A stretch of DNA of 64,000 bases from Clostridia bacterium (GCA_017410375.1 JAFQQW010000058.1:9192-73191); one strand, 5' to 3'; shown: positions 1,630 to 18,857, numbered from the stretch's first letter. Notes: generated by a model from the sequence alone, not told the origin. Numbers and translations: made by a program.

Positions 1630-2808
1630 TTAGCCACCATAACACAAAATTGTACTCACAAAATAGCGGATGTCATCCATCGCGTGGTCTGAAACCTGCA
1701 CCACCGTATCGGTTGTGGCATCGGTGTCCCAGGCATAGGTCTCAAACTCCTTTTTTGTCGCCCTGCAGGCAGGACTGAAGCTTAAATATCCCTGCTCCAA
1801 CAGCGAGGACACCCGCCGAATGCCGTCCAGCACGCGATTTTTGGCTTTGCGCACCGAAAACCTGCCCGAGCGGCGTATCAGTTCGATAAAGGATGCCGCG
1901 GAGGGGTCAACCACCACACACGAAATGGGTCGGTCGCCCGCCAATTCCTCTAACGCCTTGTAATACTCCGCATCGGTCTTTAAGCTTTCTGTGGCTTTGC
2001 CGTCATGATAATACTCCCTGATGCGGTGGGCGTGCTTTCCCACCACCTGCCAAAGCCCCATGGAACACGGGTTTAAAGTCCCGTAATCCACCGAAATGTA
2101 GTAAGGATAGCCTGCGCGCTCTTGGACTTCCCTCACATGCTTTTCGGGGTCGAACATGGGGTACACCAACCCGGATGCAACCACCCAGTCCCCTTCCACA
2201 AACCGTTTGTAAAAGAGTCCGGTATACTCTTTTTTTAAATCGCGAATGTAGTCGGCGGGTAAAAACGTGTTGTCATCTATGTGAAACCGGACAGAAAGCA
2301 AACTTAAATCAGCACGGTCTAAATATTTTTCTTTCAGCCAGTGCCGGGGACTGTCCGGGTTGGTGGTCGCAATCAGCTTTGCGCCTTCTAAGCTCAGGCG
2401 CGAGAGCAACATGGAAAAAAAGCTTTCGGGAAGCAGAGTCAGTTCGTCTAAATAGGCACCGTACAGCGTCATACCGCGGATTTTGCTTTCCGCACCGCTG
2501 TCGCCTGCGCCCTCAAAATATACTTTGCGGTCAAACAGATTTCCGCTCTTTTTGGCAAGGGAGTATGTAAAATGATTTGCCCCTACCATGTTTTGCAGAA
2601 GCTCCAAAGCGTTTCGCTCTAAGGTATTTAAGGTTCGGCCTGCCATTAGAAAGGTGCTCCCTTTGGGCGAGGCGGCAACAAAAAACGCAAACAGAATGAG
2701 CGAAATGTAGGTCTTACCGCTGCGCACCGCCCCCTGCAGGATGTTGATACGCTTCAAGCCCCCTTGTTTGAACAGCTTTAAAAGCTCTGCCTGTTTTTCG
2801 GTTACCAT
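1630..2808 (-). CDS. phage terminase large subunit, PBSX/XtmB-like
   Basis: Walker-A GAVRSGKT near the N-terminus, ATPase then nuclease-like C-terminal half, AGGAGG RBS, followed by the portal-like gene. Confidence 0.8.
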   Translation of the reverse strand: MVTEKQAELLKLFKQGGLKRINILQGAVRSGKTYISLILFAFFVAASPKGSTFLMAGRTLNTLERNALELLQNMVGANHFTYSLAKKSGNLFDRKVYFEGAGDSGAESKIRGMTLYGAYLDELTLLPESFFSMLLSRLSLEGAKLIATTNPDSPRHWLKEKYLDRADLSLLSVRFHIDDNTFLPADYIRDLKKEYTGLFYKRFVEGDWVVASGLVYPMFDPEKHVREVQERAGYPYYISVDYGTLNPCSMGLWQVVGKHAHRIREYYHDGKATESLKTDAEYYKALEELAGDRPISCVVVDPSAASFIELIRRSGRFSVRKAKNRVLDGIRRVSSLLEQGYLSFSPACRATKKEFETYAWDTDATTDTVVQVSDHAMDDIRYFVSTILCYGG

Positions 2809-3934: not shown

Positions 3935-3992
3935 AGCTACTCGCTTCCACCTCATCAGTCTCGCTTTGCTCGACAGCTTCTCCTCAAGGGGA
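3935..3992. repeat. degenerate copy of twin-palindrome repeat family B (CTTCTCCTCAAGGGGAAG)
   Basis: Same cacctcatc-[palindrome]-[CTTCCCCTCAAGGGGAAG] order as the copies at 5352, 5697 and 28855. Confidence 0.5.
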
Positions 3993-4194
3993 AGCCTTTT
4001 TTGTCATTCTGAACGAGCAACGCGAAGTGAAGAATCTCCCGTGCAGATGATTTTATACCAAAACAACCTTCGTTCGTTTCTCAGTTGCACTACGCAACAC
4101 GATCTCAAAAAAATAAGTTTCCTAGCGTACCCTTCTACCCTCTCTACAAGTTTCCTCAGTACTTTTGCTTGTTGCGTTACGCAACGAACACTTC

Positions 4195-4340
4195 AAAAAA
4201 TAAGCAAGCGGAGCTTGCGTATCGCAAAAAGTATTTCGCAGAAAACTTTTTGCGGAAACGGAGTACCAGACCGAAAAACGAAGTTGTGTTTTTCAAAACG
4301 CAACGAGTAAAAAGGTCTCGGTACGACGTGCTTAAGGTTG
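4195..4340 (+). repeat. repeat family A copy: hairpin GCAAAAAGT-ATTTCGCAGAAA-ACTTTTTGC plus a conserved 3' tail
   Basis: Homologous to 5120-5240, 5450-5560 and 16265-16395. Confidence 0.6.
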
Positions 4341-4392
4341 CTTTCGCAACCGATGCCATTATTATACCACAAAATCCCTAATTTGTCAATAG

Positions 4393-4430
4393 TTTTTGGC
4401 AAAAAAGTTGCGTTATGCAACTTTTTCTTG
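4393..4430 (+). terminator. hairpin AAAAAGTTGCGTTATGCAACTTTTT followed by a T-run
   Basis: 10-bp stem, loop GTTAT, then CTTGTTTTTT. Confidence 0.45.
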
Positions 4431-4486: not shown

Positions 4487-4735
4487 TTAATAGAGTTTAA
4501 TTTCATATTTTTGAATCAACCGCAAAAGTTTTTCTACTTTTTCGGTGTCGTCCAGTTTTTCACTACGCACAATTTTTTCCACCTTTTCAAAAAACATATT
4601 ATACGCCTCGTTGTATATCTGCTCAAAATCCATGTTCTGCATGGTTCTCCACACCGCATCGCTGATATACGTTTTAATCATACGGTTTGTGATACTTTTC
4701 CGAAAATCTTCTTTATTAAAATACATTTCAGACAT
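4487..4735 (-). CDS. small conserved hypothetical protein (82 aa), paralog of 18609-18857
   Basis: MSEMYFNKEDFRKS...EKLDDTEKVEKLLRLIQKYEIKLY, about 50% identical to the 18609 ORF; AAGGAGG RBS 8 nt before the ATG. Confidence 0.55.
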   Translation of the reverse strand: MSEMYFNKEDFRKSITNRMIKTYISDAVWRTMQNMDFEQIYNEAYNMFFEKVEKIVRSEKLDDTEKVEKLLRLIQKYEIKLY

Positions 4736-4944
4736 TTGTTTGTCCTCCTTAAATAAAAAAAGTGCGCAGCCCGAGAGCCACGCACCAAAAAGACGCAGTG
4801 ACTCCATTCCTACGGTTGCAACACCACATAAACATCATCCCACATAACAGAGGTATGACAAGAATAGAGTGTACGCTTTTTACAAAGATAGCGTACCCTC
4901 TGTTTATGTGGTTTATGTAATTGTTTATGTAATGTTGCATGTTC
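4736..4944 (-). promoter_or_regulatory. structured 5' leader (riboswitch- or attenuator-like) of the small gene, ending in a terminator that abuts the RBS
   Basis: Long-range helix CCACATAAACAGAGG / CCTCTGTTATGTGG; conserved core GCTATCTTTGTAAAAAGCGTAC; block CTGCGTCTTTTTGGTGCG; hairpin GTGCG...CGCAC plus T7; homologous to 18414-18608. Confidence 0.35.
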
Positions 4945-4973
4945 AGTATATCATACTTTTTTTAATTTATCAA
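4945..4973 (-). promoter_or_regulatory. sigma-A-like promoter TTGATA-17-TATACT for the leader and small gene
   Basis: -35 at 4968-4973 and -10 at 4945-4950 on the minus strand with a 17-nt spacer. Confidence 0.4.
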
Positions 4974-5119
4974 CCTTTTTTAACAGGAAATTCATTTCTC
5001 TCCCTCCGTCACCGCTCTGCGGTGCCACCTCCCTCGTCAGAGGGAGGCAAAAAAGGCTCCCTTGTGTAAAGGGCGCTGTCGAACAAAGTGAGACTTAAGG
5101 GAGAGAAAATGCGAACGGA

Positions 5120-5855: not shown

Positions 5856-7538
5856 TTATTCGCCTTCAACAGCGGCTTTCTGTGCATCGTAAGCTGCAGT
5901 CCATTCGGAGGGCTGGAGCGGAACTTCGGGAGCCGGAGCTGCACCGGATGCCTGGTTTTCGGTGATGTAAGCATTCATCTGCTCAACATATTCCTTACCA
6001 CCCTGTGCATACCATTTTTCCAATGCTGCATCGTATTCAGAAACTTCCATCTGACCTGCGCAGATCTTGGTTACAACCTGAACCAATTCGTCCTGAGCGG
6101 TGATGAACTGAGTGCTGGATGCGATTGCGGGAACGAAGCCGTTATCCAAAGAGTCAATCTGGGTAACCTGGCCAATGTGGAAGTTGTTTAAGGTAATATC
6201 TTCCATATGAGCGGTCTTTGCGGGGTCGATACCACGCAGTGCGAAGAATTCAGGGTCACCTGCTTTTCTTACGATACCGGCCGGGAATGAAGCACCTCTG
6301 CCCTGTTCGCCGGGTTCAACCTGGATGCTGGTCTTAACGCCGCCGATCATTTCATAGGTAATACCTTCAACACCGTTTGCTACCATATCCCAAACTTCGT
6401 CAGAAAGGATGTAGTCGCAAAGCTGGATGAAGTTGTTCGGTTCAGCACATGCGGTGAATACGCAGAACTGACCCCACATGGGTTTGTAGTAACCGTTACC
6501 TGCTACAATGCCGTTATCATCCTTTGCAAAGAGGTATTCAACGTAAGAACCTTCGGGGCTCTGTAAATTGTTGTTTGCTTCCATCAAAGATTTTTCATGG
6601 CTAGCGATATCGCCTACGAAACCGATACCGAGACCATATCTCTGCTGTTTGAAGTTATCGTTAACAGCGGTCTTGGTGAGGGTCGGGCCGTCCTTATCGA
6701 GATAGCCTGCCTTCTGGATTTCCTGGGTGTAAGCGAGCTGCTTCTTGAAGATGTCAGACTTCTGAGAATACTGCGGGAACATGTAATCATAGTCTTCGCC
6801 TTCGTAAGCGTACCAGCCATAGTCACCATAGAAACCACGGGTGAATTCAAAAGGACCAAACTGCTTTGTGGTATCGTCAGTCCAGCAAGAGGTAGCCAAA
6901 GTATCGTTCTTACCGTTGTTATCCGGATCGTCTTCGGTCATTCTCTTTAAGAGTTCTTTGAATTCGTCTGCAGAAACTTCATGGAATTCACGGTCGAGGT
7001 ATTCGCCAAGGCCGATGTTCTTGAGCCAGTCAGCACGAACGATGATACCTTCGTTACGGGTCAGAGATGTTCTCGGAACCGCATAGATTTTGCCGTCATC
7101 GAGGGGTTTAACGCCTTCCCAAGCGGTGGGATAGGTGTAAGCCATCAGGTTGGGGCAGTTTTCTTCGGTTAAGTATTCGTCCAGTGCTACAACCTTACCA
7201 GCTTCGCATACGTCGATGTAAGCCTGTACGGTTGTGGTCGGGAACAATGCTGCGTCCGGATATTCACCGGAAGCAATCATGAGCTGTAACTGTTCCAGAT
7301 AACCGGAACCGGATGCTGTCTGAATTTCAACTGTAACGCCGGTCTTTTCTTTAAAGCCTTCGATGATCATTTCATCGATAACGGTAGGACCTTCAGCGCT
7401 ACCAATGTTACCGAACACGGTTAAAGTGTCGGCTGCATTTTTCTTGCCGCCGTCTTTGCCGGAGCCGTCACATGCTACCAAAGAAAGTACCAGAGTAAGC
7501 GCCAGCATCAGAGCCAAGATTTTGCTTAACTTTTTCAT
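5856..7538 (-). CDS. ABC transporter extracellular solute-binding lipoprotein (family-1 sugar SBP, LplA/YtcQ-like)
   Basis: Signal peptide plus lipobox LVACDGSG; about 560-aa SBP architecture; last gene of a three-gene importer operon. Confidence 0.8.
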   Translation of the reverse strand: MKKLSKILALMLALTLVLSLVACDGSGKDGGKKNAADTLTVFGNIGSAEGPTVIDEMIIEGFKEKTGVTVEIQTASGSGYLEQLQLMIASGEYPDAALFPTTTVQAYIDVCEAGKVVALDEYLTEENCPNLMAYTYPTAWEGVKPLDDGKIYAVPRTSLTRNEGIIVRADWLKNIGLGEYLDREFHEVSADEFKELLKRMTEDDPDNNGKNDTLATSCWTDDTTKQFGPFEFTRGFYGDYGWYAYEGEDYDYMFPQYSQKSDIFKKQLAYTQEIQKAGYLDKDGPTLTKTAVNDNFKQQRYGLGIGFVGDIASHEKSLMEANNNLQSPEGSYVEYLFAKDDNGIVAGNGYYKPMWGQFCVFTACAEPNNFIQLCDYILSDEVWDMVANGVEGITYEMIGGVKTSIQVEPGEQGRGASFPAGIVRKAGDPEFFALRGIDPAKTAHMEDITLNNFHIGQVTQIDSLDNGFVPAIASSTQFITAQDELVQVVTKICAGQMEVSEYDAALEKWYAQGGKEYVEQMNAYITENQASGAAPAPEVPLQPSEWTAAYDAQKAAVEGE

Positions 7539-18203: not shown

Positions 18204-18384
18204 TCAAAAAGGAACTCTGTGTTAAACAGAGTTCCTTTTTTTACTTTAATAAAAAATTCCGTAAAATCTTGTGTTACAAAGCAAAAGTATATTAAAAAAT
18301 AGTATTTTGTGCACTTTTTTTAATTTAAGAAGGGGTAAGCAACAGATTCAAAATAGCACTTTAAATAAATTTTAAAGATAAAGG

Positions 18385-18413
18385 TTGCTATTTGCAAAAA
18401 GATATGGTAAAAT
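18385..18413 (+). promoter_or_regulatory. sigma-A-like promoter TTGCTA-17-TAAAAT
   Basis: Hexamers at 18385-18390 and 18408-18413 with a 17-nt spacer, upstream of the structured leader. Confidence 0.4.
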
Positions 18414-18608
18414 AAATACGACCAAACACAAATGAATATTTACTTCCAAGAGAGATATGCTATCTGTAAAAAGCGTACCTCTGCTTCTGTTGTATCTCTC
18501 ATATGGAAGGATATTTTGTGTTTGGTCGCACGTAACGAAGTTGGAGCTCTGCGTTTTTTGGGTGCACACTTCGTTGTGCACTTTTTTTAATTCAAGGAGG
18601 AAAATGAT
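18414..18608 (+). promoter_or_regulatory. structured 5' leader (riboswitch- or attenuator-like) with a terminator/antiterminator, homologous to 4736-4944
   Basis: 14-bp long-range helix CGACCAAACACAAA (18417-18430) / TTTGTGTTTGGTCG (18512-18525); core GCTATCTGTAAAAAGCGTAC; ACGAAGT / ACTTCGT alternative pairing; hairpin GTGCACACTTCGTTGTGCAC plus T7 abutting AAGGAGG. Confidence 0.4.
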
Positions 18609-18857
18609 ATGTCCGGGCAATTCACTGACAGAGAGGATTTTTTCAAAGATGTACGAATGCGCATGATTAAATACTATATAGAAGACTATGTGCAGAACAC
18701 TATGATGCGTATGGATTTCGAGGAAGTTCTGAACAACTCCTTTGATAAATTTTTTAAGACATTGGAAAAAATCATACATAGCGAAAAGTTAGATGACAGC
18801 ACAAAGGTGGAAAAAATCTTAAAGCTAATCCAAAAATATCAGTTAACATTAGATTAA
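18609..18857 (+). CDS. small conserved hypothetical protein (82 aa), paralog of 4487-4735
   Basis: Shares the EKLDD(S/T)xKVEK(I/L)LKLIQKY C-terminus and MDFEE core with its paralog. Confidence 0.55.
   Translation: MSGQFTDREDFFKDVRMRMIKYYIEDYVQNTMMRMDFEEVLNNSFDKFFKTLEKIIHSEKLDDSTKVEKILKLIQKYQLTLD

Follow-up and report, generated by a model that had tools for sequence, protein, structure and literature searches.

What lies between the promoter and the small gene at 4487-4990 on the minus strand of a 64,000-nt stretch of DNA from a Clostridia bacterium (GCA_017410375.1 JAFQQW010000058.1:9192-73191; the whole stretch is hereafter called the window)? The gene is an open reading frame (ORF) of 82 aa preceded by a leader, and a paralogous ORF with a leader of its own is found elsewhere in the window; the two leaders are referred to here as copy A and copy B, respectively. 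The original prediction, made from the sequence alone, held that a long-range helix occupies the same relative position in both leaders with an entirely different sequence, and considered this a product of functional RNA structure rather than of mere DNA duplication. Both parts of this view are borne out. Seven distinct leaders preceding 82-aa homologues keep the same three helices (P1, P2 and P3) with different helix sequences, and the same pattern of kept positions and changed sequences is found in at least about 90 units of other genomes, in agreement with covariation tests. Thus, both window leaders are real structured RNAs of one family, which is absent from RNA databases. Two points had been overlooked: the family is large and not tied to the 82-aa gene, and a conserved block in the leader pairs over a long distance with the apical domain and also supplies the 5' strand of an antiterminator. 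Judging from sequence comparison, the family is best read as an undescribed group of riboswitch-like attenuators. Each copy is likely to be a self-contained, cis-acting transcription attenuator of this uncatalogued family, which probably switches its downstream genes by choosing among a pseudoknot, an antiterminator and a terminator.

Copy A comprises a sigma-70 promoter and a leader of ~185 nt upstream of the 82-aa ORF (Table 1). The minus-strand promoter TTGATA-17-TATACT was located as proposed, with an additional TG before the -10 element, and it places the predicted transcription start (+1) near 4939/4938. The helix described originally is present in the minimum-free-energy (MFE) fold, whereas the outer 17-bp helix, P1, had escaped notice. 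The complete leader folds at -75.5 kcal/mol (z = -7.6), which none of 200 shuffled sequences equalled or surpassed, and its 5' domain is more stable in the sense than in the antisense orientation (-47.4 versus -43.5 kcal/mol). The 22-nt core around P3 occurs once in the window and was matched in none of 100 shuffles. The identity of this core between the two copies, given as 21/22, is actually 20/22, with a 2-nt deletion in copy B. The conserved block was found where it was expected, and so was a terminator directly before the ORF: an 11-bp stem followed by TTTTTTATTT constitutes an intrinsic terminator, after which come the Shine-Dalgarno (SD) sequence and the ATG. The products of the two ORFs are 53% identical (E = 2e-29). 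Copy B has the same order of parts with other helix sequences, and its leader fold is likewise more stable than those of shuffled sequences (z = -4.6). Searches with nhmmer using family profiles recovered exactly these two copies in the window.

Five further distinct leaders were obtained from contigs encoding 82-aa homologues (L001, L005, L006, L007 and L010). Each combines a promoter, a long hairpin from +1, a terminator and an SD sequence with the apical core and the block of the window copies, but the helix sequences differ. We then scanned one genome per bacterial species with the DNA pattern GCTA-N3-9-AAAAAGCGTAY-N0-1-CTCT, which matched at least 120 stretches. In the corresponding loci, nhmmer identified at least about 90 real units in more than 70 metagenome-assembled genomes (MAGs), with several copies per genome. 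Among the matches listed, all those with the full architecture are from MAGs of uncultured gut Clostridia, Oscillospiraceae or Eubacteriales, and all those in other phyla are due to chance. These MAGs derive from samples of humans (including Hadza), goats, buffalo, deer and birds. The same pattern gave eight matches in 2.9 million viral contigs, all of them chance occurrences inside coding sequences and none a real unit; a phage origin of the family was rejected on this basis, although copy A adjoins phage-like genes.

The consensus of the family is given in the last column of Table 1. The 5' hairpin (P1, bulge and P2) spans ~100-125 nt, with P1 and P2 forming a rod of ~30 bp. Matched lengths of P1 and P2 would suit a fold-back geometry; in clean short members the two measure 12-18 bp each, and an automatic partition over all members gave a correlation between their lengths of r = -0.40. 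Sequence conservation within the family is highest in the apical hairpin P3. Some 18 unpaired nucleotides do not vary, namely those in the loop UAUnGUAAAAA, in GUCAUA, which follows the single strand J, and in the bulge GAAUAU. Two subtypes can be distinguished. In type 1, which includes copy A, J begins with ACUCU, whereas in type 2, which includes copy B, it begins with CUCUGA and region 2, the segment just upstream of the terminator, reads GUCAGAGUGAUACG. In most of the 74 units, 14-20 nt separate the U-run from the start codon, with the SD sequence in between.

Table 1. Parts of the two leader units of the window and of the family consensus (window coordinates; copy A on the minus strand, copy B on the plus strand).
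Feature	Copy A (-)	Copy B (+)	Family consensus
Unit	4736-4975 (promoter and leader)	18385-18857 (whole unit)	
Promoter	4945-4973; -35 TTGATA 4973-4968, 17-nt spacer, extended -10 TG-n-TATACT 4950-4945	18385-18413; TTGCTA-17-TAAAAT	TTGTAA-N17-TGTGrTATAmT, 5-8 nt before P1
5' domain	4818-4938; long irregular hairpin, with a short middle helix and internal loops above P1 (MFE fold)		
P1	GCAACAUUACAUAAACA 4938-4922 / UGUUUAUGUGGUGUUGC 4834-4818; outer 17-bp helix, begins at predicted +1	18419-18430 with 18517-18528	from +1, GCUACAAC... pairs with ...GUGUAGC
Bulge			5' side, around GAAUAU, conserved; extra side hairpin here in some members
P2	CCACATAAACAGAGG 4911-4897 / CCTCTGTTATGTGG 4853-4840; present in MFE fold		helix above the GAAUAU bulge
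P3 (apical hairpin)	GUACGC 4896-4891, loop UAUCUUUGUAAAAA 4890-4877, GCGUAC 4876-4871	18456-18478 (P3/core)	GUACGC-UAUUGUAAAAA-GCGUAC
Core	GCTATCTTTGTAAAAAGCGTAC 4892-4871	GCTATCTGTAAAAAGCGTAC 18459-18478	
J	4854-4870; 3' side of apical internal loop; ACUCUAUUCUUG 4870-4859, then conserved UCAUA 4858-4854	CUCUGCUUC 18479-18487	3' single strand ACUCUUGUUUC, then GUCAUAC
Closing strands			3' strands of P2, then P1
Linker, P1 to region 2			2-12 nt
Region 2	4791-4812; UAGGAAUGGAGU 4812-4801, strand pairing with J; with CACUGCGUC, also antiterminator 5' strand	GAAGUUGGAG 18537-18546	GAAACAGAGUCACUGCGUUUUUU, then terminator and U-run
Conserved block	CTGCGTCTTTTTGGTGCG 4798-4781		
Terminator and U-run	4751-4786; GGUGCGUGGCUCUCGGGCUGCGCACU 4786-4761; 5' half doubles as antiterminator 3' strand	18562-18581, then U-run	
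SD	AAGGAGG 4750-4744	18594-18600	
82-aa ORF	ATG 4735, stop ends 4487	18609-18857	

Covariation was assessed in two ways. RNAalifold applied to 28 full-length members recovered P1, P3 and the terminator independently, with double changes in 19 of 30 pairs. When the long-range helix was included in the 28-sequence alignment, 92.4% of the cells paired, versus 78.5% in shuffles (0/500), and the covariation score was 0.464 versus 0.217 (0/500), falling to at most 0.125 when the partners were slid. Changes on both sides were found in 25 of the 36 pairs of this alignment, and the controls were clean. One position of P1 displays all four Watson-Crick pairs (GC 10, AU 6, UA 6, CG 3). The P3 pairs are formed in 98% of cells, with G-C to A-U changes at the closing pair, and the terminator pairs covary while being paired in 96%. 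Because the helix columns are hard to align, we also compared the duplex energies of each strand with its own partner and with the partners of other members (71 units, 10,000 permutations). The cognate duplexes were more stable for P1 (-12.3 versus -4.8 kcal/mol), P2 (-11.8 versus -5.0), the terminator (-18.7 versus -12.4) and the pairing of J with region 2 (-10.3 versus -8.2), with p < 1e-4 in every case. Covariation thus supports P1, P2, the terminator and the long-range J:region 2 pairing. The 69 5' domains considered contain 252 G-U pairs and only 4 single A-C mismatches, and in 64 of the 69 folding is more stable in the sense than in the antisense orientation (Wilcoxon p = 1e-12), indicating that selection acts on the RNA of this strand and not on a DNA palindrome. 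Taken as a riboswitch in the generic sense, the leader has a conserved, covarying sensor domain coupled to an expression platform.

The expression platform is built around region 2, the start of which is complementary to J. Both strands covary: the consensus pair ACUCUUGUUUC/GAAACAGAGU is replaced by ACUCUAUUCUUG/UAGGAAUGGAGU in copy A (12 bp, -13.5 kcal/mol), by CUCUGCUUC/GAAGUUGGAG in copy B, and by GCUCUUCUCG/CGAGAGAGC, ACUUUGUUUC/GAAACAAAGU or ACUCUCACUUC/GAAUGGGAGU in other members. The signal persists inside each subtype (p < 1e-4 and p = 0.004). In copy A, ACUCUAUUCUUG of J is the 5' strand of this pairing, which has the topology of a pseudoknot. Adjoining it, AAAAAGCG, made up of the end of the P3 loop and the P3 3' strand, is complementary to CGUUUUUU, and rare variants preserve the pairing, namely CGCUUUUU in L001, L007 and L108, AAAAAGGCG opposite CGCUUUUUU in the second L069 unit, and GCUUUUUU in L072. 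The copy A variant, CGUCUUUUU (4795-4787), extends into the U-tract and is complementary to AAAAAGCG of P3. The pseudoknot measures 10-12 bp, or ~20 bp when the AAAAAGCG:CGUUUUUU part is counted. Alternatively, the whole of region 2 can pair with the 5' half and the loop of the terminator to form an antiterminator of 13-18 bp. Here too cognate partners bind better, both in type 1 (-14.9 versus -13.8; p = 0.0004) and in type 2 (-15.8 versus -11.9; p < 1e-4). As in a terminator/antiterminator attenuator, the alternative hairpin consumes the terminator 5' half and excludes the terminator. The pseudoknot and the antiterminator are mutually exclusive as well, because they use the same nucleotides. 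A third partner is available to J. The AGAG just 5' of P3 can pair with the CUCU of J and extend P3 (77.9% paired versus 68.2% in shuffles; score 0.519 versus 0.345, 0/500), thus offering a way to hide J.

From these competing pairings we infer that transcription terminates or reads through at the leaders in the following manner. A strong sigma-A promoter would start transcription at the base of the ~100-125-nt hairpin, the apex of which would bear P3 and the single-stranded J. The leader can be divided into four segments: the P3 3' strand with J (1), region 2 (2), the 5' half and loop of the terminator (3) and its 3' half (4). Pairing of 1 with 2, a pseudoknot relative to P1 and P2, would tie up region 2, so that 3 pairs with 4 and RNA polymerase halts at the U-run, ahead of the SD sequence and 14-20 nt short of the start codon. 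If segment 1 were unavailable, the 2:3 antiterminator would form first and the polymerase would read through into the gene. Segment 1 might be held either by an effector on the apical domain or by the pairing of its CUCU with AGAG 5' of P3. Our best guess for the effector is a small molecule, or else a dedicated RNA-binding protein, that recognises the invariant loop UAUnGUAAAAA together with the GUCAUA of J and the GAAUAU bulge. Invariant unpaired nucleotides combined with a pseudoknot represent a complexity typical of riboswitch aptamers, and are equally compatible with a dedicated RNA-binding protein. Direct binding of a small molecule by the apical domain (P3 loop, J, GAAUAU bulge and J:region 2 pseudoknot), which would make this a new orphan riboswitch class controlling a regulon of SLOG and small helical proteins in a large lineage of uncultured gut Clostridia, is a proposal that we advance tentatively, with the odds somewhat against it. 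Given the frequent YpsA/SLOG cargo, such a ligand could possibly be a nucleotide-derived signal.

The genes downstream are diverse. Among the 74 units, 56 distinct ORFs begin no more than 60 nt from the terminator. About 23 of them are YpsA/SLOG-like; when two representatives were scanned with PF06908, one scored 28.4 bits (cut-off 27.7) and the other, a shorter form, 25.9 bits. The remainder include several families of small helical proteins (MPDYKKLY..., the 75-82-aa group), small lipoproteins with a TGxKYHxxxCxYL motif and a few large secreted proteins. The lipoproteins form a family of 84-95 aa with the motif VYxTxTGxKYHxxxCxYL...PCxxCxP, located after the leader at L021, L032, L041, L053, L105 and L125, and they have no match in Pfam. 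Within this cargo, the 82-aa protein is one of many and not the specific partner of the leader RNA. It is modelled as three helices (predicted structure, pLDDT 78.6), with sub-threshold matches only in Pfam and NCBIfam and no significant match to its fold in the PDB by Foldseek (best E 1.5). Its family consists of eight clusters plus copy B, all from Clostridia MAGs. An exhaustive profile search of 1.84 billion representatives returned three proteins and added nothing convincing, and a protein-based search for related loci in species-representative genomes and JGI metagenomes found none. The window proteins are distant relatives of 77-78-aa proteins encoded after type-2 leaders elsewhere; for example, a 78-aa protein downstream of a family leader in another MAG shares 28% identity with the 82-aa product (E = 6e-9).

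The leaders are also modular. L001 and L005 are orthologous loci, both following a PPDK gene, with near-identical flanks, promoters and 82-aa ORFs, and yet their leaders are wholly different from +1 to the terminator. The L005 leader is almost the same as the one at L006, a paralogous locus (compare L001:4990-5197, L005:5400-5625 and L006:5775-6000). The exchange of a whole leader suggests that leaders move as cassettes, apparently by recombination. In six or seven cases, a unit gives way to a further promoter and unit without an intervening ORF (L018, L025, L035, L058, L065, L069 and the start of L007; for example, L018:5467-5900, two units on the minus strand of L025, and L007:1-110). The first unit of such a tandem often retains an SD sequence or a stub of a few codons, as in L058 (ATG TAT AAC TTT TAA).

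Several considerations weigh against the attenuator. Retrieval with an exact pattern makes the core look invariant by construction, and the presence of two subtypes and of related sequences means that the independent events behind the covariation are fewer than the counts suggest. In the fixed columns of a MAFFT alignment, the antiterminator scored no better than shuffles, the subtypes and variable loops being out of register there; this test was for that reason replaced by the cognate duplex energies, in which a narrow definition of the antiterminator still gave p = 0.059 in type 1. The geometry is also demanding. With a rod of ~30 bp and a linker of 2-12 nt, a rod left intact would have to make a sharp bend for J to reach region 2, possibly at the conserved bulge. 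Finally, the tandem units lacking an ORF would also fit a stand-alone small RNA. A gene for such an RNA, ~160-220 nt long and acting in trans with incidental read-through, would account for the strong conserved promoter and the efficient-looking terminator of every unit, for the multiple copies per genome and for the six or seven units that precede another complete unit rather than an ORF. However, a start codon lies 14-20 nt past the U-run in most units with an SD sequence between, and the gene-less units retain the SD sequence and, in L058, a four-codon stub, so that they look like deletion remnants. Furthermore, J and region 2 covary within each copy, which indicates pairing in cis, and an antiterminator would be purposeless in a pure small RNA gene. 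We consider this explanation unlikely.

Two other explanations are still less probable. The leader could be an autoregulatory operator bound by its own 82-aa protein, in the manner of ribosomal-protein leaders. The joint duplication of leader and small gene in the window agrees with this, as does the occurrence of family leaders before the distant homologues in other MAGs mentioned above. By contrast, leaders of this kind, invariant loops included, stand before unrelated genes (the ~23 YpsA/SLOG-like ORFs, lipoproteins, other small proteins and large secreted proteins), the ~10 sequence clusters of the 82-aa family face at least about 90 leaders, and the protein has no RNA-binding domain or fold recognisable by Pfam, NCBIfam or Foldseek, making autoregulation very improbable. 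As for a DNA-level element between promoter and gene, be it a repeat resembling miniature inverted-repeat transposable elements (MITEs) or repetitive extragenic palindromes (REPs), a recombination site or a cruciform, the long multi-copy inverted repeat, the exchange of whole leaders between loci and the unrelated GC-rich palindromic repeats nearby might all evoke one. Nevertheless, the prevalence of G-U over A-C and the better sense folds described above are properties of RNA, the arms are wholly different between copies with pairing preserved, the hairpin begins exactly at the predicted +1, the apical strand pairs with a segment outside the repeat, and the 2.9 million viral contigs contain no such element. 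A DNA-level role is hardly credible.

The attenuator that we favour shares features with several known systems. T-box leaders (RF00230) are 5' leaders of Firmicutes, present in many copies per genome, in which a long effector-sensing 5' hairpin is followed by mutually exclusive antiterminator and terminator before the SD sequence. The layout and copy number of the present family are similar. Unlike T-boxes, however, it gives no RF00230 match even at E <= 10 and has neither the conserved T-box sequence nor the UGGN bulge; its antiterminator loop is a U-run followed by variable nucleotides (GG, AG, G or GA), its sensing strand pairs with the expression platform itself, and its cargo comprises YpsA/SLOG-like and small uncharacterised proteins instead of aminoacyl-tRNA synthetase or amino-acid genes. 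Identity with T-boxes was rejected on the basis of the missing match, the variable nucleotides after the U-run and the unrelated cargo. In the ZTP (pfl motif) and fluoride riboswitches, a pseudoknot from the upstream domain to the strand immediately preceding the terminator determines whether the terminator forms. The sensor would contact the platform by a long-range pseudoknot here as well, but neither sequences nor covariance models reveal any similarity, the 5' domain takes the form of a ~30-bp rod and not of a compact junction, and the pseudoknot is unusually long. The nested competition of anti-antiterminator (1:2), antiterminator (2:3) and terminator (3:4) is that of trp-type attenuators, with the difference that there is no leader peptide and segment 1 is pre-organised at the apex of the long hairpin instead of being covered by a ribosome. 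Leader-peptide attenuation was rejected because the only ORF in the copy A leader (4749-4940) lacks an SD sequence and is absent from other copies. The c-di-GMP-I (GEMM-I) riboswitches of Clostridia are one leader class placed before many genes that are functionally unrelated and often uncharacterised, with several occurrences in a genome and occasional tandem arrangements. The regulon layout of our family is the same in these three respects, whereas it has no match to RF01051, a different architecture and a cargo of YpsA/SLOG-like and small helical proteins. Two further candidates were discarded by inspection, without a dedicated model. ANTAR targets are tandem hexanucleotide-loop hairpins, unlike the P3 loop of 11-14 nt, and no ethanolamine or nitrogen genes lie downstream; the ribonucleic antiterminator (RAT) recognised by PRD proteins is ~29 nt long, unlike the antiterminator, an irregular 13-18-bp hairpin with a U-run loop, and no phosphotransferase system genes follow. 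A 6S-like reading was rejected together with these and the T-box.

Searches of RNA databases agree with the distinctness of the family. At gathering thresholds, Rfam 15 has no match in the window, and in eight loci with canonical copies it recognises only RNase P and a tRNA; at E <= 10, the window and canonical copies yield only chance matches to terminators or hairpins. The literature searched, including papers on the bulk discovery of structured RNAs, mentions no such motif and no leaders before DUF1273/YpsA genes, supplementary lists of bulk candidates being outside this coverage; it is possible that the family sits unnamed in one of them.

If the attenuator reading is correct, a single promoter-leader-terminator cassette would govern mostly uncharacterised genes in dozens of uncultured Clostridia species from the guts of humans, ruminants and birds. 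It would be a new orphan riboswitch-like attenuator of unusual build, with a sensor at the tip of a ~30-bp rod reaching back to the expression platform, and a compact, modular regulatory part, as the natural swapping of whole leaders between loci shows. It would also provide a handle on the function of the cargo genes, as genes controlled by one switch tend to have a physiological theme in common. The competing pairings are defined precisely enough for a few designed mutants to probe them.

Some observations concern the surroundings of the two copies. Mechanically called ORFs of 52-69 aa lie wholly inside the leaders (4749-4940 on the minus strand; 18432-18590 and 18457-18666 on the plus strand); having no SD sequence and no conservation in other family members, these can almost certainly be dismissed as genes. 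Palindromic repeats rich in GC, represented by CCTCCCTCTGACGAGGGAGG and by a ~90-nt element ending in ...GGGAGCAAGCCCCCGCCCTAC, are found at ~5020-5090 of the window on the minus strand and at L006:5490-5660 and 6280-6390. These repeats flank the small gene in different genomes and have a REP/MITE-like look in an otherwise AT-rich genome. In the interval 3950-4430 (minus strand), the copy A gene ends in a bidirectional terminator at 4402-4426, directly after which comes a perfect promoter, TTGACA-17-TGTGGTATAAT (4389-4361). This promoter is followed by ~400 nt devoid of ORFs, a stretch with repeated small hairpins, GTTGCG-n3/4-GCAAC, that may represent another structured leader or a set of protein-binding sites. 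The stretch runs into a 291-aa ORF and phage-like genes, and copy A itself is situated upstream of this separate promoter and of the gene for a terminase large subunit (1633-2808, minus strand). Upstream of copy B, a match to OrzO-P of Rfam at 18206-18283 is sub-threshold (35.7 bits versus a gathering score of 60) and is accounted for by the hairpin of a bidirectional terminator at this position. Copy B is located between a SIS-domain gene and the convergent gene of a 1660-aa surface protein.

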